Below, in pieces: positions 33,025 through 55,200 of a stretch of 64,000 bases of DNA. The translations under genes were made by a program, and so were the position numbers. The stretch spans positions 62,001 to 126,000 of the forward strand of contig KV454016.1 in NCBI GenBank assembly GCA_001661245.1. The letters are read 5' to 3'. Within the stretch, counting starts at the first letter, position 1; each line of letters starts with the position of its first letter. This DNA comes from Pachysolen tannophilus NRRL Y-2460 (taxonomy: Eukaryota). The notes under the pieces were generated by a model. The model ran no database searches, was not told where the DNA came from, and saw nothing but the letters and a program-made list of their open reading frames with translations.

Positions 33025-35820
33025 CTATATATTCTTTTTATCCTTAGCCTTAACATCGCCATCATCACTCACATCGACATCACCCAATAAAATATTAGAT
33101 CCTACCTCAATAATAATAATAAATAAACTACTCAATATTCCGATGCAATAATTAGAAATTGTTAAACCAATGTCTAACCAACTTCCAGTGGTCTTTACCA
33201 AATAGAAAAAGTTCAAACTTAAAAGTTCCGATGTACTTATCAATAATGAACTTATTGAATAGTTAGCCAATTGTAATTTATGATTCATAATACCAATACC
33301 AACGGAAAGTAGCATATAAGGTATTATTAATTTAATCATTAGTAATGCGCCCATTAGAAATGGTGAAAAAATTGGTATTAATCTGTAAACCGATTCCAAT
33401 GAAAATGCACTAATTGAAGCAATATTACCTGTACCGAAAAATGCAATTTGTAAAAAGAAAAAATTGATAACAGATATTCTAACTAACTGAACATTATCTT
33501 GATTTTCAGTGACATCACTTTTAAACTTGCTTTCTAATAATATGAATTGATATATTAATAAGCTGAAAAAACAATAAAATCTGCTTTCAAATGATATTGT
33601 TAAAATATTGAAAATCGGAGCAAATGTTAAAAATAACATTAACATTTTCACTTTATAATTCTTTGGTATATTTAATCTCGAATGTTGTATAATTGGTAAT
33701 ATAATTAATGAATTTACAATGATACCCCAGTTTAAAAACTGTGTCACTTTAGAAAGACCTGTTTTAGCTTGTAAAGAAACCACTGCATCTGTAGTGGTTT
33801 TGATCGATGCAACTAATAGTAATATTTGTAAAATAATAGATCTTTTAAATGGAAAATATTCATGAGAATTGAAATTTTTTTGCAAACGAACATATCCAAC
33901 TATTGAAATAATTGTCATTAATAAACCACCTAAAATTATTTGAAATAAACTTTCTTCTTTAACAGCATCATAAGTAGTGAAAATACTCATATTAAAACAA
34001 GTAAAACCCCATAAAATTTTTTGAATAATTGAGATATTACTTCTTGTATTTAAAAACAATGGATAAAATGCTAATATGATAAACATTATTGTAAACACAT
34101 TTCTATCGAAAAACCCATAAACGGTACCTTCATAAAGTATTATAATTGATGAAATTATTAAAATTTTTTGGAAAAAAGATATATTTATGAAAAATAATCT
34201 TGTACCTTTTGTTAATTTTGAGAAATTACTAGTTATATTTTGGAAGAAATAAATTGGGAATAACAAGTACATGTAATAATTGAAAGGTGAATTTTGATAA
34301 TATAATAAACAACTTAATGAAGTTAGTAAAAATCCGAAAAATAAATAATTTAATAATGAAGTATTTGAATTTTTTTCATCTTTTAATATAAAATGTTGTA
34401 AAAAATTTAAAAATGAATAAATGATCCAACCAACAAATCCTAATGTGACAATACTTCTTAATAATAACCAATTATAAGTTGTTAAATAGTATAATCCATC
34501 TAAAGTAACTTTTATTAAAGATTTAACCAAATCTATAGCCAGAGCTTCATATTCTTTATTTCCTTCCTCTACAAAATTAATTAATTTTTCAATTTCCAGT
34601 TTCCGTTCTTCAATTGATATTTCAACAAATTTTGAATATGGTTTAAAATTCAATTGAGTTTTCATCAATTCTGCTTCTTTAACCAAATATTGTTCTAATA
34701 TAGCTTTTGCATTTTGATATAAAGATTTTAATTTTTGTTCTTCCGAAGTATCTAAATAATCTAATGGTAATTCACCTACTGAATTTGAAGCATAATTAAT
34801 TCCAATCAAATTTGAAATTAAAGATGCAATATCTGCTTGATTAACATCATTTCTCTTTATATGATGTAAATCCCAAGAATTTGTATAATCATCATAAATT
34901 GGATCATTTAAAATGACAGGTTTTTTAATACCACTTCCCCAACAAATTAAAGGTGTTCTTGTATTATTTGGATGACCATCACCATGAGATCCAAAAGCAC
35001 TCATACCATGATCTGCAGTGAAAATAAATGCACTATTATCATCTTGGAAAAAATCATGAATTTTAGGTATTAATTTTGATAATTCAGTATCTATATATTT
35101 TAAATTATCATAATATTCCAGTGAATAAGGTTTATAACTATGACCTGCTGTATCTAAACCTAATAAATGTAAGAAAAAAATATTTCCATCTTGTTTAATT
35201 TCTTTCATTAATTTAAAATCATTACTAGCATTATTAAAAAGTGAATATAAATGATCAAATACAAATTTATCCAATTCAATTGAAGATTTACTAAAATCTT
35301 CAAATTCATGACCATACATCCAAGTATCAATTTTATTTGAATCACTTGCTCCAGCTTTAAACATTGGTAAAATATCTGGTGAACCAAATGAATAAGTATG
35401 TGTTGATTGATTTAAAGTACTATCAAAATCAACAGGATTTTCTTTCCAACCTTTTGTTACAGCAGATACATCTTCATAAAAACCTGCAATCATAGCAACA
35501 TGACCTGGTCTAGATTCAGTTGGCATTCTGGTATGAGATATTCCATAAGTACCTTCATTAAGTACAATATTTCTTAAAAATGGAGCTAAAAATTCTTCTT
35601 TACCACTTGTTGGATGATGAATTAAATCAAAAGTTGTATCCGCCCTTAACCCATCTCCAACTATAAGAAATAACCTCTTAGCAGGTGCAGAATCCGTTGA
35701 TTTAAAATGTCTCATACCATGAACTAATGGCGATACAAAATAAATATCAAAAATCGACCATAAATAAAATAAATGAAATATAATCCCAATTACTAAAAAA
35801 ATTAACCTCTTTGAATTCAT
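33025..35820 (-). CDS. MCD4: GPI ethanolamine-phosphate transferase 1 (PIG-N)
   Basis: SIFDIYFVSP, GDGLRAD, SHTRMPTESRPGHVA, TADHGMS, FFGTGNIAS, GSWLDIG motifs. Confidence 0.96.
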   Translation of the reverse strand: MNSKRLIFLVIGIIFHLFYLWSIFDIYFVSPLVHGMRHFKSTDSAPAKRLFLIVGDGLRADTTFDLIHHPTSGKEEFLAPFLRNIVLNEGTYGISHTRMPTESRPGHVAMIAGFYEDVSAVTKGWKENPVDFDSTLNQSTHTYSFGSPDILPMFKAGASDSNKIDTWMYGHEFEDFSKSSIELDKFVFDHLYSLFNNASNDFKLMKEIKQDGNIFFLHLLGLDTAGHSYKPYSLEYYDNLKYIDTELSKLIPKIHDFFQDDNSAFIFTADHGMSAFGSHGDGHPNNTRTPLICWGSGIKKPVILNDPIYDDYTNSWDLHHIKRNDVNQADIASLISNLIGINYASNSVGELPLDYLDTSEEQKLKSLYQNAKAILEQYLVKEAELMKTQLNFKPYSKFVEISIEERKLEIEKLINFVEEGNKEYEALAIDLVKSLIKVTLDGLYYLTTYNWLLLRSIVTLGFVGWIIYSFLNFLQHFILKDEKNSNTSLLNYLFFGFLLTSLSCLLYYQNSPFNYYMYLLFPIYFFQNITSNFSKLTKGTRLFFINISFFQKILIISSIIILYEGTVYGFFDRNVFTIMFIILAFYPLFLNTRSNISIIQKILWGFTCFNMSIFTTYDAVKEESLFQIILGGLLMTIISIVGYVRLQKNFNSHEYFPFKRSIILQILLLVASIKTTTDAVVSLQAKTGLSKVTQFLNWGIIVNSLIILPIIQHSRLNIPKNYKVKMLMLFLTFAPIFNILTISFESRFYCFFSLLIYQFILLESKFKSDVTENQDNVQLVRISVINFFFLQIAFFGTGNIASISAFSLESVYRLIPIFSPFLMGALLMIKLIIPYMLLSVGIGIMNHKLQLANYSISSLLISTSELLSLNFFYLVKTTGSWLDIGLTISNYCIGILSSLFIIIIEVGSNILLGDVDVSDDGDVKAKDKKNI

Positions 35821-36024
35821 TCTTTATCCCACTTGTAATTCTTGATCTTTACTTTACAATTTAACTTAACCGCCATAGGGGGAAAAAAAAACACAATACT
35901 TCTTTTTAATTAATTAATTAATTATTTATTTATATATTTACTATTAAAAATAAAGCAAAAAAAAAAAGTTATTGATTGTTCAGTGATTATAAAAAAGAGT
36001 TTCCGTTTTAGGAAATAGGAAAGA

Positions 36025-36990
36025 TCATATGTTGTAGTCTTTTAATATACCTTTCATATGAGTATTTGTTAATTTAACTCTTCTTGGTTTTTTCAATTTC
36101 TTTGATTCTGTTCCTATTGGTTTTTTCTTTGTTAGAGGACCCATACTTGTTGGTTTTAAACCATTTTCATTTAATTTTATTTGTAAAGAATCACCTTCTG
36201 GTAATTTTATATGAGACCACATATTAACAAATTCTTCATCAATAAGACCAACTTCACCTCCTAAATTGGGGAAGACTAATCTTGCTGCATTTTCCTTTTT
36301 CTTTCTCAATACAATGACTTTATGTTGTTTTTCTAATTCATTTACAGAATCCATACATCCATTCCAACCATCTTTTAATTCTTTTATAGATATACCTTTA
36401 AAAATTGGTTGTGATCTTAAAAAACCAAGTAAATCTGCAGAAGATCTTATATTATGTAAAGACATATATTCAATCATTCCAGTATGTGGATCATATTTGA
36501 TTCTATCAATATTACTCAAAAGTGGGAGTAAATTAGTTGTAACATCAGCAGATAAATAATCTTCTAATTTAGATACAGGTATTGAATAATCTTGACTCTT
36601 GATAAATTCAACCGCCAAATGCAACTGTGTGGATAATTGTGATCCACTCACTGATAAAGTAGGTTTTTGTCTCTTATTACCATTACTATTACTATTACCA
36701 TTATTATTTAAATTATTGCCACTTCCAGAATGATAATTTTGTTCATCCACATTACCACTACTCCTTTTCAATGATTCCTGATGCTTTTTTATTGGTGATT
36801 TCGTCGATTTAGATCCTAAACTACCAGAATTAGCAACTCCCAATAATGATGTTGTTGTACTAGTACTTGCAGAAGGAACTGAATTTAAACTTGATGAACT
36901 TGCAGAAGAAACAACTCTTCGCTGAGAAGGTACACTAGAATTCTTGATCCGTTGCTTGAAATTACTCAACTGCTTCTCCAAATCAGACAT
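36025..36990 (-). CDS. TFA2: Transcription factor TFIIE beta subunit
   Basis: QLHLAVEFIK, FKGISIKELKDGW, IDEEFVNMW, KLTNTHMKGILKDY motifs. ATG at 36990. Confidence 0.92.
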   Translation of the reverse strand: MSDLEKQLSNFKQRIKNSSVPSQRRVVSSASSSSLNSVPSASTSTTTSLLGVANSGSLGSKSTKSPIKKHQESLKRSSGNVDEQNYHSGSGNNLNNNGNSNSNGNKRQKPTLSVSGSQLSTQLHLAVEFIKSQDYSIPVSKLEDYLSADVTTNLLPLLSNIDRIKYDPHTGMIEYMSLHNIRSSADLLGFLRSQPIFKGISIKELKDGWNGCMDSVNELEKQHKVIVLRKKKENAARLVFPNLGGEVGLIDEEFVNMWSHIKLPEGDSLQIKLNENGLKPTSMGPLTKKKPIGTESKKLKKPRRVKLTNTHMKGILKDYNI

Positions 36991-37195
36991 ATTACCCAAT
37001 AGAAATAAACCAAAAAAAAGGAAATAAATAAAAAAACCACCACCACAATAGTACCAAATAATACTTAATTATAATATATATTCAGTATTATCAACTGCTA
37101 CCTATTACCTTTATTTTCAACCTTTCTACTTTCCTACACTTCTACAGACCATTTTATTTTCACCTATTTTTTTGGCAGATTTGATTTTAAATATT

Positions 37196-37204
37196 TCACG
37201 TGAC
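37196..37204. promoter_or_regulatory. Cbf1-type E-box TCACGTGAC in the TFA2/snoRNA divergent promoter
   Basis: Exact motif; a second CACGTG lies about 35 bp downstream, and the same TCACGTGAC occurs at 41027-41035 upstream of MBA1. Confidence 0.55.
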
Positions 37205-37472
37205 AATTGTTTTACCGATCTATTTATTGACACGTGTTACTGTGCCTTTTTGCACGACAATTCTAGTATATTTGGCAGATATTGACGGATTTCACAGATT
37301 TGATTTATTTTGACAGATTTTTGAATAAAACACGGTAAAGTCACGGGCAAAAAAGAACGAAAAAAATTTTTTTTTTTAATAGAAAAAAATCGGTTTACGT
37401 ATACGTAATAAATTAGTTATTTGTTTTATTAACTAAATGAACATTTTTTTACAAATAGGAAAATATTTAAAA

Positions 37473-37739
37473 AAAAGGGGAACGTTTCCAATGATTTTAC
37501 TGACAGGTTTCAGTTATGCTTTATTTATTTTCCAAACTTCTGAGTAGTAACCATTTGTTGGAAGCTTTTCCCTTTTGTTCAAAGAGTAAAACTCTGAAAA
37601 AAAAAAAGATTTTTTAATTTTTTTTTTTTTAAAGAATTCAGCTTTAAAACCATCGCCGTTGTGAGGTTGCCGTCGTGGCTTACTGGTTACGAGTCTGGCT
37701 GATCCATGAAATGGTGATGACCTAAAGTCTGATACATTA
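37473..37739 (+). ncRNA. SNR42: H/ACA snoRNA guiding 25S rRNA pseudouridine-2975 (snR42 orthologue); 5' end approximate
   Basis: H box AAAGAA at 37631. The 3' hairpin has lower stem TCAGCTTT/AAAGTCTGA, pocket strands TAAAAC (37645-50) and ACCT (37720-23) complementary to 25S AGGU-U-A-GUUUUA, and upper stem CATCGCCGTT/AATGGTGATG. ACA at 37734 lies 14 nt from the pocket. A 5' hairpin spans 37473-37576. Confidence 0.85.
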
Positions 37740-38233
37740 TAATATACTCTTATATATATGAGTATGTTTGTTTGTGTGCTATTAGTTGTGAAGCGCCGAC
37801 ACTACCTTTTGTTTTTTTTTCTTTTACTCTTTGTATTATCTGAACTCCGAAAGTAATATATGGCCAAGCGAAAGTACGAATTTAAACATGCCTCTATGTA
37901 ATACTTGACTCCACAATCAGTATCATATCGGGTCATATATTATTATTATTACATTTGACTTGAAGAAGAAAGAAAAAAAAAATCATTCTTTGTCTTGCTT
38001 TTCCTATATTTCCCATAATTTCTTGCTTCGGCGAACAAATAATCTCGGAAACCTAAACACTAAAAAGTAACACTATTTTTTTATTTTTTTAATTTTCTTT
38101 TTTTATGCCTTATCGTAATACCAAAATAAATAATTGTGTGATTACTAGTTTCAAACTTACATATTAAAGTTTTTTCATGTTCCAGTATTTGAGACACATG
38201 ATAATCCTTTTGGACTCTAACTAATTATGGAGA

Positions 38234-38244
38234 CGGACAAATGG
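38234..38244. promoter_or_regulatory. Carbon-source response element (Cat8/Sip4-type) upstream of the JEN permease
   Basis: CGGACAAATGG is the reverse complement of CCATTTGTCCG, matching CCRTTNRNCCG. A Mig1-like GTGGGG with AT-rich flank lies at 38397-38402. Confidence 0.5.
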
Positions 38245-38937
38245 CCACAGTCTTAACTTTACTTTACTGTCTATTAATTTTTTAGAAAAAATCCGTGCAG
38301 TCGTGTAACGAGTAGCGAGTAATGACGAAAGAGGAAATTATTTCATAATAAGTTGGTTTATAAAACAATGGAAAAGGTGCATATATGTATTAATGTGTGG
38401 GGGAGAACAAACAATGTTACATTCATTAATACTGCAAAAAATGAATGAATTGTAATTGAAAAATATATATGATGTGATATACAAATAGGTAGAATCGGCA
38501 AATATTTAATCTTTATTTTTTTGCTTTCAATATAAGAAGTTAATTGTTATTTTTTTTTTTCGGGGGATTTTCTTTTTTCTTTTTTTTTTTTTTTCGACGT
38601 AAAAAGAAAAAAAAAGAAAGTTAATTTAAACGTACGTTTATGCAAGGTTTCGAATGACCTTTTTATGGGTTTTCCATCTATTATTACGCTTTCATTTAAT
38701 ATTCTGCTTGTATTTTATCAATCTAGTCTGGATGATTATATCCTGCAATAGGATAGATAGCATCATGCTGAATGCTATACTACTACTTTCTTGTAAAGAT
38801 ATTTCTTGAGAAATAAAAATTATAATAATGTATATAAATAAACGTAGGATGTACTCTTTTTTTAACATTATTTTTTTTTGGGTATTACAATTTTGTCTTG
38901 TAATAATAATAGAAAAACCAATTATAAGATTTTTACA

Positions 38938-40716
38938 ATGTCATCGACTCAATTTACAAATAATATAAATGATTCTTCTGACTTTCAAACGACTGCTAAC
39001 GAGCAAACAGTTTCTAGTCAGAATTCTGAAATAACTCAACAACATTCATTCATAGATGAAGCTAATACAAAAAATTTAAAAGAAAAATCAGAAGAAACAA
39101 GAATAGTAGCTGATTATGATGCACCTCCAGATCTTTCAATTAAAAATATTCGTCATTATTTTGCTACAAGATTTACTACTTTAATAGATTTACCAGATAC
39201 TGATATTAAAACTTTAAATCCAATACCAGAATTGAGAAAAATGAATTTTATTCAATGGAATTATTTTTTCCTTGGATTAGCTGCTTGGGCTAGTGCATCT
39301 TTTGATTTTTTTTGCACTTCAACAGCTGGTACTAAAATTGCAGCAGCTTTAGGTGTTTCTACTCAAAAAATTACTTGGGGTCTTTCAGTAGTTTTAATGT
39401 TAAGAAGTGCTGGTGCTGTTATATTTGGTGTTTGGACTGATAATTATAGTCGTAAATGGCCATTTATTGTATGTAATTTAATATTTGCAGGTGTACAAAT
39501 TGGTACAGGATTTGTTAAAACTTATCATCAATTTTTAGCGGTAAGAGCAGTTTCTGGTATTGCAATGGGTGGTGTTTATGGTTGTGCAGCTGCAACTGCA
39601 CTAGAAGATGCTCCTCCAGGAGCAAGATCTTTTTTAAGTGGATTTTTTTTCACTGGTTATGCATGGGGATTAATGTTAGCAATGATTTTTTATCGTGCTT
39701 TTGAATATACTTCAAAACCATGGCAAGCATTATTTTGGTTTTCAACTAGTATGCCAGTTATTATAATTTTATGGAGATTATGTTTACCAGAAACAAAATT
39801 TTTTACTGAATTAATAAAAGCTAAAAAAGAACATCAAGCTCAATTAATAAAACAAGGTAAATATAATGGAAAAAATTTTAAAGATAAATTAATAAGTTTT
39901 GAGCAAAAATTCCGTATTCATTGGCTTAGATTTATTTATTGCATATTATTATTAGCAGGTTTTAATTATCTTACTCATGGTTCTCAAGATTTATTAACAA
40001 CAATGGTTAGATCTCAACTTGGATTTTCTGAAAATGCAATTACAGTTATAGTTAGTATTTATTCATTAGGAGGTGTTGTTGGTTCTATATTTGTTGGACA
40101 AATGATGGAATTAACAGGAAGAAGATTGGCAATTATTATCTGTGCTATAATCGCAGGTGCTTTGGTATATCCAACTTATATGTTAAAAACAGAAGCTTCA
40201 ATCATGGCATCAGGTTTTTTCTTAAATTTTGTTGTAATGGGTGCTTGGGGTGTTATACCTCAACATTTAAATGAATTATGTCCTGCAGATGCAAGAGCTT
40301 TACTTTCAGGATTATCTTATCAATTAGGTAATCTTGCAGCATCACTGTCTCTGACTATAGAAACAGAAATTAGTAATTCTTTCCCATTAGAATATAATTC
40401 TCTGGGTAAGATAACAAAATATAATTATGGTAAAGTTATGACAGTTTTCACAGGTGCTGTATCAATTTATTTATTATGTATCACTTTTGTAGGTCCAGAA
40501 TTTTTCCATCGTGATTTAAGATCCACAGAAATGATAGAATTGGAACAATTCATGAAATCAGAAGATTTAGAAGAAACAACAACTTCAGGTTTAGCTGCTA
40601 CTTTAACAAATGGTACAGACCAAGATCCAAATATAGATATAGAAAAAAATAATTCTAGTCCTTATAACACAAAGAAAAATTCAAAAAATATCTTTAAAAA
40701 ATTTTTCCAAAAATGA
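38938..40716 (+). CDS. JEN1: Jen-family (sialate:H+ symporter family) carboxylate permease
   Basis: Signature NYLTHGSQDLLTT (NxxS/THxS/TQDxxxT), ATALEDAP, GLSYQLGN; 12 TM. ATG at 38938. JEN1 versus JEN2 not resolved. Confidence 0.85.
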   Translation: MSSTQFTNNINDSSDFQTTANEQTVSSQNSEITQQHSFIDEANTKNLKEKSEETRIVADYDAPPDLSIKNIRHYFATRFTTLIDLPDTDIKTLNPIPELRKMNFIQWNYFFLGLAAWASASFDFFCTSTAGTKIAAALGVSTQKITWGLSVVLMLRSAGAVIFGVWTDNYSRKWPFIVCNLIFAGVQIGTGFVKTYHQFLAVRAVSGIAMGGVYGCAAATALEDAPPGARSFLSGFFFTGYAWGLMLAMIFYRAFEYTSKPWQALFWFSTSMPVIIILWRLCLPETKFFTELIKAKKEHQAQLIKQGKYNGKNFKDKLISFEQKFRIHWLRFIYCILLLAGFNYLTHGSQDLLTTMVRSQLGFSENAITVIVSIYSLGGVVGSIFVGQMMELTGRRLAIIICAIIAGALVYPTYMLKTEASIMASGFFLNFVVMGAWGVIPQHLNELCPADARALLSGLSYQLGNLAASLSLTIETEISNSFPLEYNSLGKITKYNYGKVMTVFTGAVSIYLLCITFVGPEFFHRDLRSTEMIELEQFMKSEDLEETTTSGLAATLTNGTDQDPNIDIEKNNSSPYNTKKNSKNIFKKFFQK

Positions 40717-41212
40717 AATCAAAAAAATATTATTACTGATTATCATCAACTCAAAGGTTTTTATTTTTTAACTTTAGCCTTTGATTTTTAATTTATATAG
40801 TTATAACTAGTTTATCTTCTTTAATGATTAATATATATATGGTATAAAACATACTAAAAATTGTACCTTACAGCAGACTAACCATCCAATTTCCGTCGAA
40901 CCAAAAAAAAAAATCCAAAATCCCAAAGGTCGTTCACAATGTATCAGAAAAGAGAAATAAAAAAAATTCAGGTAGTGTTTTAATTTACTAAACTTTCCGT
41001 TTTGGGAATTTTCAAAAAATCAACAATCACGTGACTGAAATTTATAGCGAACAAAAAAAAAAAAATAAGAAAAATGAAGAAAACGCCCATGAAAAAACTG
41101 GCCCATACAAATTTATACCCAGGAAGAAGAACATAAGAGAACATAAGAGAAGAGAAGAGAAGAGAAGAAGAATACAGGTTTTTTTTTGAACGGTAAGGAG
41201 TTTGTTTTCACA

Positions 41213-42136
41213 ATGATTAGAGTAGTTTACAGAGGGTTTCCGTCAGTTAGGTCTGTTGGATCTGTTAGTGCAGTGAGGGTTTCTGTTGGTGGTGTAGGTA
41301 TTTTTAACAATAATATTTTATTTTCAAGTTCACCATCTTCATGTTCAGTTAGATTCAATTCAACAGAGAAAACTTCTTTATCATCTACAAAGTCAAAATC
41401 TTCCAATACTATAGGTAATCAACCAAGTATTACCAAGATAGGGATTCCTGCTAAGCTTTATATTCCTCCAAGGATTTCTCGTTTACCTAATCCTTTTTTA
41501 AATCCAGTAAGATTTATGAAATGTATTTTTAAAAGATTAGGATTAGTTGGATTAAATACTTTACAAGTGATTGATTTTAGGAAAGGAGGTCTTAAACCAG
41601 AATTTATCTTATGGAAAAATTTAGCTATTGAGAAATTTGTTCATGTTAATAAAGCTTTTGCACAAAGAAAATTACAAACTGTTAGAAGTGAATGTTCTAG
41701 TTTTGTATTTGATGCTTTAAAAAATAGATCAAAAACTTTACCAAAAGATGTTGAATTAGATTGGAAATTAATAAAATTTAATTCAAAACCAAAATTATTA
41801 AGTTTTTATCATTTCCCAACAACTGATGGTGCTACTCTTTGTTTACAAATTGTTTATAAATTTGATACAAAGCAAAGATTAGTTTTTGTTAAAAATGGTG
41901 AAACTACAAATCAAGATAAAGATTTAATAGAATATTTAGCTTTTAATGTCGATCCATATACAAAAGAAGTATGCATTGCTGGTTCTCTTTTCGAAAGTGG
42001 TATAGATGAAAAAATTAGTCCAGAAGCTAGTCCCTCACAAAGAACAGTTTTAAATAATATGGTTGAATTTGGTGATATATATAGAATAGAACCTCCAAGA
42101 GATTTACCAAAAAAAATTGAATCATCAAAAAACTAA
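41213..42136 (+). CDS. MBA1: Mitochondrial ribosome receptor Mba1 (Tim44-like)
   Basis: FILWKNLAIEKFVHVNKAFA, LDWKLIKFN, QIVYKFDTKQRL, GSLFES, GDIYR; mitochondrial presequence. Confidence 0.85.
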   Translation: MIRVVYRGFPSVRSVGSVSAVRVSVGGVGIFNNNILFSSSPSSCSVRFNSTEKTSLSSTKSKSSNTIGNQPSITKIGIPAKLYIPPRISRLPNPFLNPVRFMKCIFKRLGLVGLNTLQVIDFRKGGLKPEFILWKNLAIEKFVHVNKAFAQRKLQTVRSECSSFVFDALKNRSKTLPKDVELDWKLIKFNSKPKLLSFYHFPTTDGATLCLQIVYKFDTKQRLVFVKNGETTNQDKDLIEYLAFNVDPYTKEVCIAGSLFESGIDEKISPEASPSQRTVLNNMVEFGDIYRIEPPRDLPKKIESSKN

Positions 42137-42473
42137 AGTCAAAAAAAAAAAAAGATCAATAATTACGAAAACATGTATATATATATATTTTTTAATTAAT
42201 TTCATTTACCTGATTTTTGTAGATAAAATCTTCATTAAATAAACGTATTCAATCTACTAATACGACATTGCAAAACATAATATATACAGAACATAAACGG
42301 TGCTCATGTCGAATTTCATAATAAATGAGAGATGCGAAATGAAAGTTAACATGAAAAGAGAACAAAAAAAAAAAAAAAAAAATCCAAACAGTCATTTCTA
42401 AGCAAACAAAAGTGAAATAAAAGTAATAAAAAAAAAAACAATTTAACTTAACTTAAAGCATCAATCAAAAAAT

Positions 42474-44337: not shown

Positions 44338-44557
44338 GTGGCGGCGGGAAAAAGGCGGGAAAAAGGCGGAGGTAGAGCAGGCAGTGAAAGCAGTGAAGGT
44401 GATGAAGGTGGTGAAGGTAGTCCACTTGCTGTCTACTTTGTGTCTACTGGCGGTTTAGGAGAAGTGGCGGCGTACTTTGTCACTGGAGGCGGCGGCGGAA
44501 AAGGCAGCAACAGCAGCAGCAGCGGGTAGCTACTGCCTTCACTGCCTCTGCCGCCTC
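44338..44557. repeat. GC-rich intergenic island with direct and inverted repeats
   Basis: GGCGGGAAAAA twice, a GTGAAGG series and a CAG run. Inverted repeat AGGCAGTGAAAGCAGT (44379-94) / ACTGCCTTCACTGCCT (44532-47). Confidence 0.8.
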
Positions 44558-44632
44558 AACTTTCGTTATTTAATATTCTAATAGTACTATTTTCTAGTGT
44601 TCTATACTACTATACGATTTACTTTTATTCCA

Positions 44633-45883
44633 TTAGTTTTTAGTAGTTTCACTTCCTGGAACCACTTTAAAAGACAAGATATCATTCTGACCAACATCCA
44701 CAAGATCATCTTCACTGACTCTAACTCCTCCAACACCTTCGATAACCGCTATAGTTACCTCTCCCATAACATGTCTTGCAACACTTCCTACCGAAGTACC
44801 TCTTTTCACCAAGGTACAATCTCTAAATGCATGTTGACCTGATGAACCTGTAAAAGTATTTATATTTCTTACTGTGTATACTGGAATTAAATTTAAAATA
44901 TCAGCAGCTGCTTGTAATACTTGAACAACACCTGTACTTCCAAATCTGTATAAGACTAAATCTCTAATATTTTCAACCCGTTGTTTCAATTTATCATCTA
45001 ATGGTTTTAATCCACTTTCTTTACCTAAATCTTCAAGTGTATCAACAAATTCTGTACCTTCTTCATATTTAATATAATTTTGTTTAGCCAATTTTCTTAA
45101 AAAAACTTCTGTTATAGCAGATGTTAAAACTGCTTTAGAATCTGGATGTTTTAATAAAATTTTTGAAACATTTTTATCAGCATCAGGATGATCAATTTTA
45201 TTTAATGCTAATACAGTTGGAAATTTTTCACTCATAAATGCTCGTACTACAATAGTTATCATTTCATGATCCCATGTCTCCAATTTAGGTAAATTTGGAA
45301 TCCTTGCTAAAGCTTTAGCTACTAATTTCCCAGAAGCTCCATAACCACCGAATTGTGATCTTAAAGTTTCAACTGCTGAACTTTTAGTTGCTGTATGTCT
45401 TCTAACAATTGACCCCCATCTTTTTAATAAATTATTCTCAATCCATAATCGAATTTCATCTTGTAACCATTCAATGTCTTGTAAAGGATCATAACCACGA
45501 GTTTCCTTCCCCTCGGCATCAATTGTCCCAGAAACATCAACAACATGAATTAAAGCATCTGCTTGACGTAAATCATCTAAAAATTTATTACCTAAACCTC
45601 TCCCAGTAGAAGCTCCAGGTACTAATCCTGCAACATCTAATAATTGAACTGGAACATGTCTCTTACCATTGGAACACCACCCATAGTTGGGCTTACAATA
45701 TTCTTGTTTCCCAAACCTTGCACATGCACAATCAACTTGTAAATAACCAGTAGCTCTATTTGGCTCTATGGTACAAAATGGGAATGCACCAACTTTTGCA
45801 TCTGCATCAGTTAAACTATTTAAAGTTGTAGATTTCCCCGATGAAGGTTTACCAACAATACCAATCAAAGGATCCCGAGGCAT
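44633..45883 (-). CDS. OBG-family GTPase (YGR210C-like)
   Basis: [52 protein letters not shown] motifs. Confidence 0.9.
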
Positions 45884-46082
45884 CTTGAAATTCCAATTTT
45901 TAGTTTCGTTTTTCTTTTTCTTTTATTTGAATTTGCTATATAAAAATTCTTCAATATATTTATTATATACTTATATTTATATTTATATATATAAAAAAAA
46001 TTTTTCACGACCTCATCTATATGACAGATAAACCAATTATTATTAACATGGACTATGAGAGATAGGATTGCTTTTAAGTATA

Positions 46083-46691
46083 ATGTTTAATAGTATCTTG
46101 TTCATCAAGCGTCTGAAATTGATTTTTAATTTAAGAAATTGTCAATTGATTAAAAAAAATATAAAAATTTGTAACTTTTCAACTAGAAACAACTTATTTA
46201 AAGAGAAAGAGGTAAATTGGAATGAATCACAAACACTTGTTCATCTAAAATCCAAGTTTCAAGGTAGATGTGTTGAGATATCATCTTTAGAAGATGTACC
46301 TCGATTACTAAATTGTTTTATGGAGTCACATTCTAAGATTTTATCAAACGCAACACATCCAATGATGTACGCTTGGAGAACAGGTACTGTTTCTTGTATC
46401 AATTCTGGAAAATTTTTTAATATCATTAATTTGAACCAAGGTTGTCATGATAATAATGAAGCCGGAGCAGGCGCAAGGATCTTAGGATTACTAGAAAGAA
46501 CAAAATTGGTTAACGTGTTGGTAATTGTTTCCAGATGGTACGGTGGAACACCTCTTGGTCCTGCTAGATTTAGAGACATAACAGAAGTTGCAACACAAAG
46601 CTTGAAAAAAGGACTTTTCTTGGATGAAAATAACTCACCAATCTATAAGTTAAATCGAAATCAACAAACAACACAAAGGAAAAGGAAATAA
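46083..46691 (+). CDS. IMPACT/UPF0029-domain protein (YDL177C-like), possibly mitochondrial
   Basis: KSKFQGR, ATHPMMYAWR, DNNEAGAGARIL, VSRWYGGTPLGPARFRDI; no RWD domain; basic N-terminus. Confidence 0.85.
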   Translation: MFNSILFIKRLKLIFNLRNCQLIKKNIKICNFSTRNNLFKEKEVNWNESQTLVHLKSKFQGRCVEISSLEDVPRLLNCFMESHSKILSNATHPMMYAWRTGTVSCINSGKFFNIINLNQGCHDNNEAGAGARILGLLERTKLVNVLVIVSRWYGGTPLGPARFRDITEVATQSLKKGLFLDENNSPIYKLNRNQQTTQRKRK

Positions 46692-47127
46692 CCAATAATC
46701 TACAACCTCCCATCTCTTTTACAATTATATATATGAAAGTACTTGACCATTAATCTTCGAAATTGCCTAAAGAGGAAACTGTCTTATTATTTTACATACC
46801 CTCTATTAATAACTCCATTGAAAAGAACCAATTAGCCAGACTATTGGGACTTTAGTTTAGTTGGAATATTCTTACTTCAAAAGATGAGAGCACTAACTCT
46901 TTGTTTGAAATAACTATATATATATATAAATGCAATTTTCTCATTAGAATTTGTTTGTTGTATTTGACATTTAAAAGCATAAACCTTGAAAACATAGACA
47001 AAATGAATTTTCAAAAATCTACCAAGAATTGGTCAATGACCACCTAGATGAAATTTAATTCAAATCAATTGTAATCTAGTCTTTTTGATAATTAAGTTTC
47101 TTTTAATTTTGGTTCTTCTCTTAAATG

Positions 47128-47220
47128 TCCGCCCAAGCTTTTATTTAACCCTGCTCCGCCCAGTTTTCTCCCAGTTTCCGCCCAATCTCCGCCTAATTTT
47201 TTTTGCAGAGTTTCCGCCTA
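47128..47220. promoter_or_regulatory. Cluster of five TCCGCC(C/T)A motifs upstream of the FLC-like gene
   Basis: Five same-orientation TCCGCC copies within about 95 bp of AT-rich promoter DNA; binding factor unknown. Confidence 0.5.
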
Positions 47221-47540
47221 AAAATTCATCCCTCAAACAGTAAAAGGCTAAAAAAAAAAACAAAAAAAAAAGGTTTAAAAATAGCCCTGCGGTTTTCTTT
47301 TATAAATTCAATATTTGCAATTGCAATTATTGGGAGTTAGATTTCAAAATCCGAAGATATTGCTGCTTTTATCTTAAAAGGCTGCTTGCGATGGTAGTGG
47401 GTAGTGGTAGGCATTAGATTAAGAGCTAAAGTTATCATTTAATTAATTTTTTTTTTTTTAAATTTGAAAGATAAAAGTCAAGGTTTAATATTTAAAATTT
47501 TGCAGGTCAAAATTTTTTTTTTTCATTTTATTTTTAATAA

Positions 47541-49732
47541 ATGTTTTGGTTGATACGTAATATTGCCATGATTTTATTGGTATGGTTGTTCTTGGTGATA
47601 TCTTTTGCTGAATCTGCGTTGGTTGAACCATATGAATGTTTTGATTCAAAGATCAGAAATGCTCTGTTTTCAAATTTTGTGCCCGATGTTTCTTACGGGA
47701 AGGAGAATAAAACTTTAACTTTTAGTGTTCATTCGGATGTGTTTTCATATACGCCTGATGTCAATCTGAGTACAAATATATTCACAACATTACATTTGAC
47801 AATTGGTTATACCAATGGAGATACTTCGAATCATTATCTCAGGTTATGTGATTATATAAGTTTGATTAACGCAGGAAATTCAACAAGCTCCAGTACTACT
47901 AGTACTACTAGTAGTGATAGCGATAGTGATTCTGATGATGATATATGTCCATTATATTCCGGAGAGACGATTTCCATAAATTATAGTGCTGATATTTCAA
48001 ATCATTGTGTTGTTGGGACGTATTCAGTACAAATGCAGATGATAAGTTCAGATGGTTCAGGGCAAACTATTGGTTGCGTGAAAATGTATGTCACTCCAGA
48101 ATTACCTAAAAATGCTACTTTGCCATTACAAGCTGGAATTGTCATATTAGCTGGGTTGATTTTGTTAATAAACAGTTTTCTGTTGATTTTCTCTCCTTAT
48201 CAAGAATCAGAAGATCCTTATTTATTTTTATATTCAACAGTTTGTAATGCGCCATTACTTAATCAAATTACCCCTGGAATTGATGATTTTTTTGTCTATG
48301 TTCATTTTTCAATATTTATGACCGGTTTAAATTTACAATACCCAGGTTTTTATAAGCTGTTTATTTCATCAATTACATGGGTTGCATTGTTGACCAATGC
48401 TCTCACTCCCGATATGGAAAGTATAGAAGATGGTATTTATGTTACTTATGATGAAAATGGATTAGAAACTTTAGCATTATATGCTACAAATGATTTTCAA
48501 GGTAACGTATGGAAAACTTTTATGGTTGTATTATCATTTTTAATATTGGCAATAGTAGCTCTGGATCAAATATTTGTTGGTTTCTCATTTTTGACTAAAA
48601 GGAAAAACTCTTTTAATTGGAAAAAAAATTTATATCACATTATTGGATTAGTTTTAAGACTTTTCTTTTTCATGTTCACAATGCCATTTTTAGTAACAAG
48701 TATTTATTTATTATCAGGAATTGGTAGTTCTGCAACAAGTACTTATCATGGGAAGAAACCTGAGATTTGGGCAATTGTTTTATCTATTTTATTTTTAATA
48801 GTATGGGTTTTAGTAGGATTATTTTTCATATTCAACTATATTTTCCCTACAAAGAGAAATAACAAAAATAAACAAAATTTGTATACATCCATGAAATTAA
48901 TTTCAATATGGGGAGGATTATATCATAAATATGAACCTTCAAAAATTTATTACTTTATTGTTGAACTTTTAGAAATGCTTTTTTTATCTATTATTATCGG
49001 AGCATTACAAGATCATGGAGCTGTTCAAGTTATAACGGTTATAATTACTGAAGGAATATCATTAATGGCAATGCTTTATTTTAAACCTTATTATCTTAAG
49101 ACAAAGTTAAATGGTTGCAAATTGGTAGTTGCTATTGTAAAATTATTAACTAGTTTCTTGTTGATTCCTTTTGTTATTGAATTACAAACTAGCGAAGAGG
49201 CCATGACTATTGTTGCATTTGTTCAATGTAGTTTACATTTACTGGTTTTATTTTTCATTTTTTTCATACCCGTGATATATTGCCTTATATCTACAATTCA
49301 ATCGATTATTAGAGTGAGAAATGGAGAAATAGTTTCTTTTAATCCTTTAAAAAGTGGGAGTGTTGAAAAGGAAATTAAAATACCTTATTTTGGTGCTGAT
49401 ACTGAAAGTAATAATTATGATAAAACAAATAGTCATATTTCATTACTGGAAATGAGTTATTTTGAAAACCGTTTACATTCCAATAGTGGAGGATTATTTA
49501 GAAACCTGTCAATCTCGACATCAAATTTGGAATTAACAGATAATAGAGTCTTACCACTAGTGGGTATATCAAATATTTCATATGGCAATAATGATAAAAG
49601 TGCAAAGTGTGTTGACTATTCCGTTAGAGAAGCAGATGCTTTCTTTACGGGTAGAATTTTAGAACCTGATCCTGAAGTTAAACAGATATGGGAACTGAGA
49701 GAAGAAAGAAATACCAATATGGTTCCTTCAAC

Positions 49733-49764
<32 letters not shown>

Positions 49765-50060
49765 GTAATAGCATCAAGGGGAAAAAAGATTTATTTAAAT
49801 TAATATTCAGAAACAAATATCGTCGTCCAGTTAAAGGTTTTGAAGTTGAAAGACCAAGACAGATTACTATAGGTGCTGCGAATGTTGGAAATTTGTCCAA
49901 TACTACTAATACCAATCCCCACAAGACCGAGTCTTTGGCAACACGAGACGAAGATGCCGAGGATAAAAACGATGATACCCGCGTCAACGCTACACCAACG
50001 TACTCCGCTCATTTCACAGAAGACTACGGCGACAAATTTTCAACAGAAGAAGAAAACTAA
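47541..50060 (+). CDS. FLC/TRP-like (ML-like domain plus multi-TM) membrane protein
   Basis: Signal peptide, luminal Cys-containing domain (LRLCD, CPL, IGC...VTP), LNLQYPGFY, many TM segments, DYSVREADAFF tail. Confidence 0.75.
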
Positions 50061-50072
50061 CTTTCCCTTAGC

Positions 50073-50205
50073 TGAACACCACCACTTGAACACCACCACT
50101 TGAACACCACCACTTGATACCCTCCTGCACCAACATCTTACACCATTTACACCACACACACCATTATTTTAGAGGTCTTACACCACTTAATACATCTTAC
50201 ACCAT
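50073..50205. repeat. ACACCA-core array: three 14-bp TGAACACCACCACT units plus TCTTACACCA units; telomere/Rap1-like
   Basis: Read directly. Shares CATCTTACACCA, CCTGCACCA and CACCATTATTT with the 1866-1984 array. Followed by a Mcm1-type palindrome CCTAATTAGG (50212-50221). Confidence 0.9.
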
Positions 50206-50558
50206 TTGATTCCTAATTAGGCGTTTTGTTTGTTTTGTTCACTACTTTTTATGTGCTTTTTTGTTTTTTTACTTTTTTACTATAAATAATAATAAGCAGC
50301 GCTTCCGTATACCGTAAAGGCAAGAAGAGGATGAGTTCGGAGTTTATTAAAGTAAAGAATATATAGAGGTATTGGATTAAGTTAATGGGTTATTTAGTGT
50401 TGATATATTGTAGTTATTAGAACTGGTTTTAGTAGAGTTAAAAACTTTTTTGGTTTTTTCAACTATTTGATTTTATTCTTTAAAAAAAAAAGAAAGTTTG
50501 AGGTTTTTGCTTGCTATTAAGGTAAAGTCATCACTTGGCACATGTGCTTTTAATTGCG

Positions 50559-52352
50559 ATGGATTCAGTGGTTAATAATCTTTTATCATCATGGGACTCG
50601 GTAGTTAATCTTGGAGATGCTGATTTTGGGAATAAGGATAAGAGAAGGCATTCTTTTTTCGGGATCAAAAACCCTTCAGGTGCATCAATATCGGAAACAG
50701 ATAATAATAATAATAATAATAAAGATAACGGTAATAGTAATGGTATGGGTTCAATACTGAGTTCCAAGAGTTTGCAGTTACCTCATGGTGATGGTTCATC
50801 GACGTCGCTTTTTGGTTCGTCATCTCAATTGACGGATAAGTTGGTGGAAAGAATTATATCAATGGCTCTTCCAGCTTCTTCGGAGTCGATATCAGCGCTG
50901 GAAAATATTTCACAGCGACTTGAAATGCAAAAGACAAGGCCTTCATTTTCAGTTCCATTGATGTCAAAAAATTTTTTACAATTGAATTCTCGGCTTTCAG
51001 TGCCATTTGAAATGATTGATGAAATTATAAAGTTGATTTCATGGAGATCACAAACTTACACATTAGCAATCCTACTTATAATAACACATATGATAATTAA
51101 TCCGATTTTATTCTTAGTATCGCCATTAATATATATATTATTCGGAATAATGGTTCCCGCATATTTGAAACATCATCCTCCAGAAAGTTCAATTTTTTTC
51201 CCAAAGAATAATCCAGTGCCAGCAAGAGGTTTACCATTATATAAAGTCGTCGAACCAAAACCTGTTCCTGAATTATCTAGGGAATTTGTATTGAATTTAA
51301 CCGATTTACAGAATCATGTTCTCTTATATGTGGTTACATTTGATTTTTTGAATTGGATTGTATTAGAATATTGTTATTTCAAAGATGAAGCAATTTCTGC
51401 TTTGGTTTATCTAATATTATTGATCGCTACACTGTTATGTATGACCTTGATCCCAATAATAAGTATTCCTGGATTATTGAAAATTTTTCAAATTGGATCA
51501 ATAATATTACTTTGGAGTGCAGCAATATTATTTCATCCTTATTTTAAAGATCAACTATTTTATTATATTTATTCTGAAGAAACAAGGTTGAAATTATTAA
51601 CTTTGACAAATAAAGTAGAAAACTTTGTGAAACAAGAATTCACATTTGTTGAAGATCAGGAAGTACGAGAAGTAGAGATTTTTGAGATTCAATATTTGAA
51701 TTCAGAAACGAAAAATTGGACATTACTTTGTTACTCACCTGATCCTTATGTTACTAATTCAGAAATAAGAATTTCAAATTTACCCTTAGAAGGAACACAA
51801 AGTTTACAAGTTGTTAAGCCTCCAGTCGATTGGGAATTTGTACCAAGTCTTTCTGCGGTAAATTCTGATAACTCTAATAATAGCCCACAATCAGCGAAAA
51901 AGAAAAATGAACTTCACTGGAAACTAGATCTTAATCCGAAAGAGTGGGTTTCTAGAAACTACTTAGATTCAGTCATTGATATCGATGATGATGAAAAATG
52001 GTGTTATGATTTATTAACAGATGAAATTTCTCGCGATGGGGAAATGAAAAGTGACAAATTTAGAAGAAGAAGGTGGATTAAACAGTGTATAAGATCTTTC
52101 CAAGTACAAGAGATTATGAAACTTTCGGAGATGAAGCAGAAGAATCTAATTGCAAAAGATGAACATCTAAAAGAAAAAGGAAAGGGAAAGGATAACAAGA
52201 ATTTTATTAAAAATACTTTATCTTCTTCTGATCCAGAAGATTCAGAAGATCATTTGTTGGATGGGGACGGAGATGATGATGCTTCAGAACATTCCTTACA
52301 AGAAAGTGTTAAAAGTGTTGCTGAAGGAAGCATTTCATCGTTTGGTGTTTAG
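50559..52352 (+). CDS. PEX29: Peroxin Pex28/Pex29 family (reticulon-like plus dysferlin domain)
   Basis: MDSV start, LTDKLVERIISMALP, PVPELSREFVLNLTDLQNH, REVEIFEIQ, RRRRW (DysF). ATG at 50559. Confidence 0.88.
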   Translation: MDSVVNNLLSSWDSVVNLGDADFGNKDKRRHSFFGIKNPSGASISETDNNNNNNKDNGNSNGMGSILSSKSLQLPHGDGSSTSLFGSSSQLTDKLVERIISMALPASSESISALENISQRLEMQKTRPSFSVPLMSKNFLQLNSRLSVPFEMIDEIIKLISWRSQTYTLAILLIITHMIINPILFLVSPLIYILFGIMVPAYLKHHPPESSIFFPKNNPVPARGLPLYKVVEPKPVPELSREFVLNLTDLQNHVLLYVVTFDFLNWIVLEYCYFKDEAISALVYLILLIATLLCMTLIPIISIPGLLKIFQIGSIILLWSAAILFHPYFKDQLFYYIYSEETRLKLLTLTNKVENFVKQEFTFVEDQEVREVEIFEIQYLNSETKNWTLLCYSPDPYVTNSEIRISNLPLEGTQSLQVVKPPVDWEFVPSLSAVNSDNSNNSPQSAKKKNELHWKLDLNPKEWVSRNYLDSVIDIDDDEKWCYDLLTDEISRDGEMKSDKFRRRRWIKQCIRSFQVQEIMKLSEMKQKNLIAKDEHLKEKGKGKDNKNFIKNTLSSSDPEDSEDHLLDGDGDDDASEHSLQESVKSVAEGSISSFGV

Positions 52353-52601
52353 GGCATTATGGGGCATGTTTGTGAAATGACTTAAAGAAGAATATATCAT
52401 TCAGCATGGAAAAAGGTTAAGGTGGTCAAAAAGAAATAATAATTTTTTATAAAAAATTAATGGAAAAAGAGAATATTTTACGATTAAAAAAAAGAAAAAA
52501 ACACAGTATCTATTAACTTATTTTAATACTGTTTTATATTAAGAATAATAATATACATAAATATATATATAAAAAATGTATTGTTCATTTCATATCACAT
52601 C

Positions 52602-53417
52602 TCATTGTTTTCCAAAATCCATAAAATCCATTAAATTTAAACCGCTAATTTTCTTTCCAGAATCATTGTTTTGTTTCTTTTTATCTTGTAATAAATTACT
52701 TAAACTATTCAATTTTTTTCTTTTTTTACTTCTTTCCTTAGCTGTTGAATTTTTCTTATTATTGACATTATTAGCAGTATCGCTTCTTGTACCAGAATTA
52801 CTATCTTTTGAAGCATTCCAAGTAGCTATAAAAGGAGTAGAACTAGTAGTTTCTTGCAGTTTTTCAAAAATAGGTGCATTTTTTTTATTTTCCAAAGATG
52901 AAGATGGTTGTAAAAGTATATCATCAAAATCTATTCTATTATCGCAATGTAAACACTCGTATCGTAAAACCCGTTTTCTTGGTTTCCATTCTTCATGATC
53001 TTTATCATTAACATGTTTGTTGGATAATGATTTAACATTTTGGTTTTTTTTAATTTTTTTCTTATTTCCAATATAAACTATTCTAGTCTTTAAATTATAA
53101 CCTGGAATTAAAAAAACTTTACAACAGGGGCATATCTTAACACAGAGCTGTTGTTGTTGCTGTTGCTGATGTTTCTCAATAGCATTCTCGCCAGTATAAA
53201 AGGGCAAAATGAAATTCTTTTCTCTATTGTACTTTATTAATTTTTCATTAATTTTTGAAGATAACAGAGCTATTGTTAATGAATGTGATAAGTTCACATA
53301 ATGTAATGAAGTTGATGTGGTTTGATTTAATTGATTTTGCTTATATGATGTCGATAATGATGATGAAGAAGAAGACACCTGTAAGGGAGATGAGGGAGAG
53401 GGAGACACAGAGGTCAT
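52602..53417 (-). CDS. SNM1: RNase MRP subunit Snm1 (Rpr2/Rpp21 zinc-finger family)
   Basis: CPCC...LIPG...CLHC zinc finger; AKERSKKRKKLNSLSNLL and LNLMDFM C-terminus typical of Snm1. Confidence 0.75.
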   Translation of the reverse strand: MTSVSPSPSSPLQVSSSSSSLSTSYKQNQLNQTTSTSLHYVNLSHSLTIALLSSKINEKLIKYNREKNFILPFYTGENAIEKHQQQQQQQLCVKICPCCKVFLIPGYNLKTRIVYIGNKKKIKKNQNVKSLSNKHVNDKDHEEWKPRKRVLRYECLHCDNRIDFDDILLQPSSSLENKKNAPIFEKLQETTSSTPFIATWNASKDSNSGTRSDTANNVNNKKNSTAKERSKKRKKLNSLSNLLQDKKKQNNDSGKKISGLNLMDFMDFGKQ

Positions 53418-53501
53418 CTTCAATTCTAGGTTCTTAATACTAGTTGAATATATATATTTATATATATAAATTATTATTACATAAATTTTCTTAAAAAATA
53501 A

Positions 53502-53504
<3 letters not shown>

Positions 53505-53539
<35 letters not shown>
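53505..53539. repeat. Poly(dA) tract, A35
   Basis: 35 consecutive A between the SNM1 start and the HST3 stop; probably nucleosome-excluding. Confidence 0.9.
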
Positions 53540-53541
<2 letters not shown>

Positions 53542-53667
53542 AAACATTGTTGATAGTGATATAGTTATACAACAAAGAATATAACAACCGTTTAAAATCC
53601 CTTTTCTAAAACCCAGAGTAACCAAATTTCCCTTCCAACAAAAACAGCAAACAAATTTAAATAGAAA

Positions 53668-55200
53668 TCAAGCTGATGACAATAATTTCTTGATTTTTTT
53701 GGTATTTCCTTGGCTATTTTTTGTTATTTCTTCTAATAATCTTTTTCTTGTCTTTATAGGTGACTTTAAATTATTAGAATTTTTATCTTTAAAAGGTGAA
53801 TTTTTTTGGCTTGAATATGTAAGTGCTTTTTTCAAAGGAGAAAATTGTGGTGATTCAATTTCATTTTCTTTTTCTTCTTGAATATTTATTATTCTCTTTA
53901 ATCTTGGAGATCTTCTCAAGGAAGTAATGGATGTTAAATTATTAACCGTTGAAATAATGTTTTTATTATTTAAATTTCTTGGGGATTTGGATTGAGATAA
54001 GGGACTATATTCAGGGGTTGGATATTCATATTCTATGTTATTATTATTATCTTTAAAAATTTCAAAATTTAATTTTGTAGGAGGTGGAATTGAATTAATA
54101 GGTAATGACAGTACTGATTTTAAATTTAATGAATTTTTTTTAATTGTCTTTGGTGTTGTGTTTAAAATATAATTAATTCTATGTTTAGAAGGAGTATTTG
54201 GTGGTGTCATTAATGTCTTTTGTGTAACTTTAATTTCTGATTTTTCAATTAAAAATAAATCAGGAATTTCTTTTTGTAAATATTTAACCCATTCATCACA
54301 ATCAGCTTGAATATGAAAATCAATAATATTATCCCATGAAGTAAGTGGAACACAATTTTTATTTATGAAAATAACCATTCCATCATTTCTTTCATGAATT
54401 TTTTTAGCTAAATTTTTTACTAATTTTTTAACACCATCAACTTTTAAAGATGTACCAAAAATCAATAAAATTTGTGGATTTTGTTTTAAATCATATTGTA
54501 AACCTTTTGCAATATTTTCAGCATAAGGATGATTTTCACCATATAATATAATATTTGGTCTAAGTATTCCAACTGTTATACTTGACATTCTTTTCCCCAG
54601 AGCTAAACGACGATCAAATTTTTCTAAACAACTTGGACAATCTGGAGTTTCACCATCTTGTAACATTTCTCTATATTCATTTGACCATTCAAATGTTTTA
54701 AAACAATGAGTACAAGATAATTTATTTAAATCTCCATGTAATTGAACAACATCCAATTCTTTCCAATTTAATTCTGTTCCAGTATTTAAATCTAATTTTC
54801 TTTCAATTCCATCAATATTTTGAGTATAACATTTAATTAATTTTTTTTTATCATAAAGTTTTTTCAAAAATTTATGAGTATCTGTAGGATTCAGTTTCAT
54901 TGTATGTGAATATAAAGATTCCATAAAAGTACAAAAAATTTTTAAAGTCTCTTCACTTCTAAAAAGTGAAATATCAAATAAATCTTTCCCCTTTACAATA
55001 CAATTTGGATGTTTTGTCTTTACCATATTATATAACCCTTCTGAAGACCTAAAATCAGGAATCCCAGCATTACAAGATATCCCTGCTCCAGTAAGCGTCA
55101 CTATCTTCCTCGACTTCAATATCAGTCTAGATATTAAAGATAATTGACTTTTGTCGCGCTCATCAACAGCGTCTAATTGGTGTAACTGAATTGATCGCAT
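53668..55200 (-). CDS. HST3: Sirtuin H3K56 deacetylase Hst3
   Basis: TGAGISCNAGIPDFRS, KGKDLFD, YTQNIDGIE, QLHGDL, zinc-binding CxxC pairs, LRPNIILYGENHP, GTSLKVDG; S/TP-rich tail. ATG at 55200. Confidence 0.92.
   Translation of the reverse strand: MRSIQLHQLDAVDERDKSQLSLISRLILKSRKIVTLTGAGISCNAGIPDFRSSEGLYNMVKTKHPNCIVKGKDLFDISLFRSEETLKIFCTFMESLYSHTMKLNPTDTHKFLKKLYDKKKLIKCYTQNIDGIERKLDLNTGTELNWKELDVVQLHGDLNKLSCTHCFKTFEWSNEYREMLQDGETPDCPSCLEKFDRRLALGKRMSSITVGILRPNIILYGENHPYAENIAKGLQYDLKQNPQILLIFGTSLKVDGVKKLVKNLAKKIHERNDGMVIFINKNCVPLTSWDNIIDFHIQADCDEWVKYLQKEIPDLFLIEKSEIKVTQKTLMTPPNTPSKHRINYILNTTPKTIKKNSLNLKSVLSLPINSIPPPTKLNFEIFKDNNNNIEYEYPTPEYSPLSQSKSPRNLNNKNIISTVNNLTSITSLRRSPRLKRIINIQEEKENEIESPQFSPLKKALTYSSQKNSPFKDKNSNNLKSPIKTRKRLLEEITKNSQGNTKKIKKLLSSA

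Follow-up and report, generated by a model that had tools for sequence, protein, structure and literature searches.

Conserved alanine positions at CTG codons point to an alanine reading of CUG in a 64-kb budding-yeast window

Which amino acid does the cell insert at CUG in the genes of this DNA? The question is raised by a stretch of 64,000 nucleotides from contig KV454016.1 (positions 62,001 to 126,000 of the forward strand), which was analysed as a whole and is called the window here. An earlier note, made from the letters of this stretch, had claimed that its CTG codons sit at alanine positions, that the genome uses a CUG-alanine code, and that this code had already been described. We argue, with high confidence, that nuclear CUG is read as alanine here (NCBI translation table 26, the Pachysolen-type code). 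The last part of the claim is correct as well: the reassignment is already known, and passages of PMC4937558 and PMC5951914 describe it. It has been in print since 2016, there is an NCBI table for it, and the public copies of the proteins in question already follow it; the present analysis is therefore a confirmation and not a discovery.

We considered 32 open reading frames (ORFs), which are the 33 of at least 200 codons minus an open-ended duplicate of the last one. Together they hold 15,983 codons, among them 74 CTG, 1,596 other leucine-box codons and 675 GCN alanine codons. At least one CTG is found in 26 of the 32 ORFs. The corresponding figure for the P. tannophilus gene set, as given in a passage of PMC4937558, is CUG in 4210 of 5288 predicted proteins. 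The seven CTG codons named in the earlier note were all located in the window sequence where it had placed them. The genes and codons on which the argument rests are as follows, with X standing for CTG in a translated context.

53668..55200, minus strand: HST3-like sirtuin gene of 510 codons (Pfam SIR2, 1.1e-36; named Hst3 orthologues), with CTG at codons 26, 103, 201 and 364.
54892-54894, minus strand: HST3 codon 103, within AAA CTG AAT CCT ACA GAT ACT CAT.
33025..35820, minus strand: MCD4 gene (glycosylphosphatidylinositol (GPI) ethanolamine-phosphate transferase 1) of 931 codons (Pfam PigN, 1.1e-120; Mcd4 orthologues), with CTG at codons 234, 408 and 427.
35119-35121, minus strand: MCD4 codon 234, within PYS-CTG-EYYDN.
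38938..40716, plus strand: gene for a JEN1-like MFS carboxylate transporter of 592 codons (Pfam Sugar_tr, 3.3e-44; homologues are Jen1 and carboxylic-acid transporters), with CTG at codons 470, 472 and 489.
40345-40347, plus strand: JEN1 codon 470, CTG.
40351-40353, plus strand: JEN1 codon 472, CTG.
47541..50060, plus strand: FLC/TRP-like membrane protein gene of 839 codons (Pfam TRP, 1.4e-37), with 9 CTG codons.
8662..10140, plus strand: TRP3 gene (glutamine amidotransferase plus indole-3-glycerol-phosphate synthase, by Pfam), with CTG at codon 97 (8950-8952) and at codon 484 (10111-10113), the latter within DVG-X-FI.
865-1680, minus strand: MPU1-like PQ-loop gene, with CTG codon 185 at 1126..1128, within LT-X-TIP.
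24238-26898, plus strand: protein kinase gene, with CTG codon 740 at 26455..26457, within LLLT-X-TG.

The residues that orthologues carry at the CTG columns bear on the matter, and the earlier note had proposed that they be tabulated in the manner of Codetta. The homologue queries carried X at every CTG, so that no reading was presupposed. For HST3, MCD4 and JEN1 the 119 best non-self matches of the 120 listed were aligned per gene, and for the FLC-like gene the 56 best of the 149 listed non-self matches, all with E <= 1.9e-51. These four genes have 19 CTG codons and give 18 usable columns; HST3-364 is a gap in 105 of 119 homologues and was dropped by the occupancy cut-off of 70%. The TRP3 columns come from a metagenome scan that gave 80 loci, with residues read by tblastn. 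We call a column conserved if at least 80% of the homologues have one residue.

Three CTG codons fall on near-invariant alanine columns. The HST3-103 column has Ala in 116 of 119 homologues, with Ser in 2 and Ile in 1. The earlier note had put this codon at the alanine of a sirtuin motif, A-x-P-T-x-x-H. This is true of HST3 orthologues, but it does not extend to sirtuins in general: the solved structures have Phe in SIRT1 and Tyr in Sir2. At MCD4-234, 99 of the 119 homologues have Ala (Lys 7, Ser 4), which bears out the alanine position that had been proposed for PYS-CTG-EYYDN. The JEN1-470 column is Ala in 118 of 119, the remaining one being Pro. The two JEN1 codons 470 and 472 had been described together as lying in a stretch of alanine and serine. 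Codon 470 is indeed at an alanine column. Codon 472 does fit the description of a small-residue position, but its column is serine (Ser 105, Ala 10, Val 4 of 119), and it is the sole CTG at a conserved serine column.

Most of the CTG columns, however, vary. HST3-26 has Leu 28, Ile 20, His 13, Thr 11 and Ser 10 among 119 homologues. MCD4-408 (Gln 19, Ser 19, Lys 15 of 119) and MCD4-427 (Glu 48, Gln 15 of 119) are variable and polar, and JEN1-489 varies too (Gly 26, Ala 16, Asp 14 of 119). In the FLC-like gene codon 214 stands at a column of Thr 28 and Ile 16 among 56, and six further CTG columns, besides those at 273 and 719 discussed below, are variable. TRP3-97 has Gln 52, Ser 9, Ala 9 and Glu 7 over the 80 loci, with no Leu. 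TRP3-484 is covered by 8 loci (Lys 4, Gln 1, Ala 1, Glu 1, gap 1). It had been listed as a site that suits alanine better than leucine. The absence of Leu from these 8 loci agrees with that, but the column is variable and has Ala in only 1 of the 8.

A Codetta-like log-odds score over the 18 columns ranks alanine first at +3.7 bits. Serine is second at -6.6 bits, and leucine is at -38.9 bits, which is rank 9 of 20. The same alignments provide a control: among the other codons, all those with 5 or more usable columns come out with their standard residue on top. The codons that miss theirs are GCC, CAC, CGA, CGC and CGG, with 1-3 columns each.

Conserved columns can be counted directly. Of the 18 CTG, 3 stand at a conserved alanine column, a rate that does not differ from that of the GCN codons (22/118, Fisher p = 1.0). 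The true serine codons of the same genes are never found there (0/214, p = 4e-4), and neither are the true leucine codons (0/283, p = 1.8e-4). Conserved leucine columns hold 104 of the 283 leucine codons and 0 of the 18 CTG (p = 5e-4). Seen from the other side, CTG makes up 3 of the 28 conserved alanine columns (10.7%). This is close to the 9.9% share (74/749) it would have if it were counted among the alanine codons of the window. A CUG-alanine code (NCBI table 26) would place CTG at conserved alanine columns of orthologues, and in these alignments CTG does stand at such columns and at no conserved leucine column. The alignment statistics of the window speak for alanine against serine, and they reject leucine.

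The public copies of the proteins point the same way. Copies of the HST3, MCD4, JEN1 and FLC-like proteins (P0001, P0121, P0241 and P0361), which come from a contig of 1,128,252 bases, have Ala at 19 of 19 CTG sites, including 9 of 9 in the FLC-like P0361. They differ from our X-masked translations of the four proteins at the CTG sites only. The alanine reading has therefore already been applied in public data. The earlier claim of a CUG-alanine code is upheld both by these copies and by the alignment statistics.

Our own data show where CTG falls with respect to the residues conserved among orthologues, and they show the alanines in the public copies. For the tRNA, its charging and the reading at the peptide level we turn to the literature. 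According to passages of PMC4937558, Pachysolen tannophilus translates CUG as Ala with a tRNA that has the anticodon CAG and is otherwise an alanine tRNA. The features described there for Pachysolen are the anticodon CAG, a G3:U70 pair and the lack of a long variable arm. The same passages report liquid chromatography-tandem mass spectrometry (LC-MS/MS) in which CUG is Ala and 'as unambiguous as' AUG. Following this literature, the mechanism in the organism of the window would be as follows. An alanine tRNA would have gained the anticodon CAG while it kept its alanine identity elements, so alanyl-tRNA synthetase would charge it with alanine. The earlier leucine tRNA for CUG would have been lost, so that alanine would now have CTG as its fifth codon. 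In the 64-kb window itself ARAGORN detects no tRNA gene.

One can imagine that CUG is instead read as serine (table 12), as it is in Candida and the Debaryomycetaceae or in the clade of Ascoidea and Saccharomycopsis. Serine is second in the log-odds ranking, and it is the majority residue in 3 of the 18 CTG columns, strongly so at JEN1-472. However, serine is almost missing from the three near-invariant alanine columns that hold CTG, with only 2, 4 and 0 of 119 homologues. These are also columns of the kind that no true serine codon of the same genes occupies, as the counts above indicate. A CTG-serine code would be expected to put CTG at conserved serine columns, but 1 of 18 CTG is found at one as against 49 of 214 true serine codons. 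Nor does that one case demand serine, because GCN alanine codons are occasionally found at conserved serine columns too (2/118).

Resampling gives a further comparison of serine with alanine. We drew 18 codons, matched for gene composition, 20,000 times. It took the place of an unstratified resampling because the FLC-like gene, which is poorly conserved, supplies 9 of the 18 CTG columns. The observed difference over the 18 CTG columns is +10.3 bits for Ala minus Ser and +42.6 bits for Ala minus Leu. Draws of serine codons average -35.1 bits (standard deviation 12.0) for Ala minus Ser, and 0.01% of them reach the observed value. The public copies also carry alanine at these sites, not serine. 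We consider the serine reading very improbable.

Several observations weigh against an alanine reading and have to be faced together. The sample is small, with 18 deep columns from four genes and 2 TRP3 columns out of 74 CTG codons. The columns with a serine majority are JEN1-472 (105/119), HST3-201 (Ser 62, Leu 24, Gln 11, Ala 6 of 119, a variable column) and FLC-719 (34/56). The nine FLC columns taken alone lean slightly to serine, with Ala minus Ser at -4.1 bits. There is a conserved proline (49/56) at the CTG column FLC-273. Here either a conserved proline would have been replaced by alanine or the alignment may be shifted by one position in this weakly conserved family. The solved structures also offer no alanine at the CTG sites compared with them in HST3, CYB2, TRP3 and the PHO8-like protein. 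Besides the Phe and Tyr already mentioned at HST3-103, two CYB2 sites are Thr and Gln in solved S. cerevisiae Cyb2, and TRP3-97 is Gln in solved bacterial TrpG/PabA chains. The PHO8-like protein has one distant match, and its CTG sites lie in badly aligned stretches. The kinase domain has no structure-bank match at E <= 1e-32. These structural comparisons are uninformative for alanine versus serine.

A further point comes from the resampling itself. Draws of GCN codons average +34.9 bits (standard deviation 11.9) for Ala minus Ser, and 1.9% of them are at or below the observed value. In the unstratified version CTG was in the lowest 0.3% of GCN draws. CTG is therefore unlike the average alanine codon. 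The residue that is commonest in a column has a median frequency of 0.38 for CTG and 0.54 for GCN, so CTG stands at the more variable sites.

An ambiguous CUG would make sense of this avoidance. In such a scenario CUG would be mainly alanine with a substantial minor share of serine or leucine, much as stochastic Ser/Leu decoding of CUG is reported for Ascoidea asiatica (PMC6041473). Dual decoding of this codon thus exists in another yeast, and an unreliable codon is expected to shun highly conserved sites beyond what GCN does. However, such a codon should also avoid the three near-invariant alanine sites where CTG is found. The published P. tannophilus proteomics, as far as the passages of PMC4937558 cited above go, speak against it. 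The skew in conservation has a simpler explanation, in that no single synonymous step turns a GCN codon into CTG. Moreover, the skew was measured on few columns, half of them from a single gene that is poorly conserved. We give ambiguous decoding very little chance.

If CUG is alanine throughout, the variability of its sites may still mean something. No single synonymous change leads from GCN to CTG, so new CTG codons would arise mainly through amino-acid replacements. These replacements would fall at tolerant sites, which would explain why CTG is at somewhat more variable ones. The source codons would be those for Leu, Val, Pro, Gln, Arg or Met. A stronger version of this idea is that the sites of CUG-alanine codons in proteins are systematically more variable than those of the four GCN codons, each CTG marking a fairly recent replacement and not an old alanine. 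We put this forward tentatively and think it rather unlikely to hold in that form. If it were true across the genome, the substitutions since the reassignment would be recorded in the CTG sites themselves, or else these sites would betray a codon that is still somewhat unreliable.

Standard leucine, with the alanine matches as chance substitutions, can be dismissed as extremely improbable: Leu is the commonest residue at HST3-26 and at FLC-42 (13 of 56), and the columns of FLC-341 and FLC-568 are hydrophobic, but leucine is only ninth in the ranking, CTG is absent from all 113 conserved leucine columns (the probability of this is 0.006 for an ordinary leucine codon at CTG's 4.4% share), true leucine codons are absent from conserved alanine columns, and none of the 20,000 leucine draws (mean -69.0 bits, standard deviation 11.9) reaches the observed Ala minus Leu.

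An alanine reading of CUG has a practical consequence. A standard-code translation of this genome has leucine where the cell puts alanine. In the window about 0.46% of the codons would be affected, spread over the 26 long ORFs that hold CTG; among them are functional positions of HST3, MCD4 and JEN1 that are nearly invariant. The reassignment of a sense codon in a nuclear genome is remarkable biology.

The G+C content of the window is 25-32% in 4-kb steps, as on an AT-rich budding-yeast chromosome, and both strands are densely filled with long ORFs. The genome of P. tannophilus has about 30% G+C. Pfam finds ordinary budding-yeast genes among them. Those it names, others besides, are:

septin, TRP3, CYB2, ZIP transporter, MRPS5, a DUF2838 protein and a PHO8-like alkaline phosphatase;
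protein kinase, TOP2, MCD4, TFA2, a JEN1-like permease, MBA1, TIM50 and an Obg-like GTPase;
FLC/TRP-like channel, a Pex24-family protein, HST3-like sirtuin, GH16 glycosidase, KTI12 and Ku80.

The sole Rfam match in the window is to snR42, with 61.9 bits where the gathering score is 61 (E = 2.8e-13):

37547-37739, plus strand: candidate H/ACA small nucleolar RNA snR42, between the TFA2 and JEN1-like genes.

Two gene models differ from their mechanical ORFs. The PHO8-like gene has an apparent 5' exon of 52 bases at 22071-22122 (plus strand), followed by a candidate intron of 77 bases at 22123-22199, both read by eye. The candidate intron has GTATGT at 22123, AACTAAC near 22179 and AG at 22198-22199. 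The candidate exon would join the long ORF in frame and supply the hydrophobic N-terminus missing from the mechanical ORF. The gene for the ZIP-family zinc transporter (12359-14265, minus strand) is spread over two frames, with the break near 13311-13319, where nine A follow one another on the minus strand. ORF 13135-14265 gives the N-terminal part, and the C-terminal ZIP half, with the motifs HKFPEG and HNFVEG, is in the frame 12359-13327. Contigs from 4 of 4 public runs (two samples, two studies; one may be the source of the window) have one additional base at 13311. Most likely the assembly has a homopolymer error here, because the additional base in the run contigs joins both frames. It follows that 3 of the 74 counted CTG (codons 341, 360 and 373 of ORF 13135-14265) belong to an out-of-frame tail and are artefacts, not real codons.

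The relatives of the window can be judged from the matches listed for its proteins. Among these the best named HST3 matches are Leu2 Pichiaceae, with Kuraishia capsulata first at 54% identity, then Candida boidinii, Ambrosiozyma, Ogataea and Komagataella. The best named MCD4 matches listed are Saccharomycetaceae and Wickerhamomyces at about 60%. As set out in passages of PMC5951914, the alanine clade consists of Pachysolen, Nakazawaea and Peterozyma and is sister to the Leu2 Pichiaceae. Membership of the window in the Pachysolen clade is consistent with the HST3 matches, and we claim nothing beyond consistency.

Two observations on the MCD4 alignment belong here. The closest relative among the matches listed, P0122 (67% identity), is the only one of the 119 with Leu at a conserved alanine column, which it has at 1 of 17 such columns. 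At this one site it would fit a standard-code translation of another alanine-clade yeast. Many MCD4 homologues have Leu at conserved serine columns, and these may be CUG-Ser yeasts translated with the standard code.

Three known systems remain to be compared with the window. CUG-Ser2 (Ascoidea, Saccharomycopsis) is an independent reassignment of CUG within the Saccharomycotina, according to passages of PMC5951914 and to PMC6041473, and in this it resembles the present case. An Ascoidea rubescens protein is also among the better HST3 matches of the window. In contrast to CUG-Ser2, the target amino acid in the window is alanine, and there is no sign of leucine at the CTG columns. CUG-Ser1 (Candida/Debaryomycetaceae, table 12) is alike in that the same codon has been reassigned through a tRNA with the anticodon CAG, as passages of PMC5951914 describe, and in that a minority of the CTG sites of the window are at serine-rich columns. 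It is unlike the window because CTG is here at near-invariant alanine columns where serine is almost absent, and because resampling of true serine codons fails to reproduce this pattern. The Pachysolen code (table 26) is the one we find no difference in kind from, the window being a case known from its codon positions and from the public copies. The window is from a budding yeast whose best named relatives by HST3 are Pichiaceae, as one would expect from the alanine clade in the cited passages of PMC4937558 and PMC5951914. As in the Pachysolen code, CTG is at conserved alanine columns and at none of the conserved leucine columns, and the public copies have alanine.

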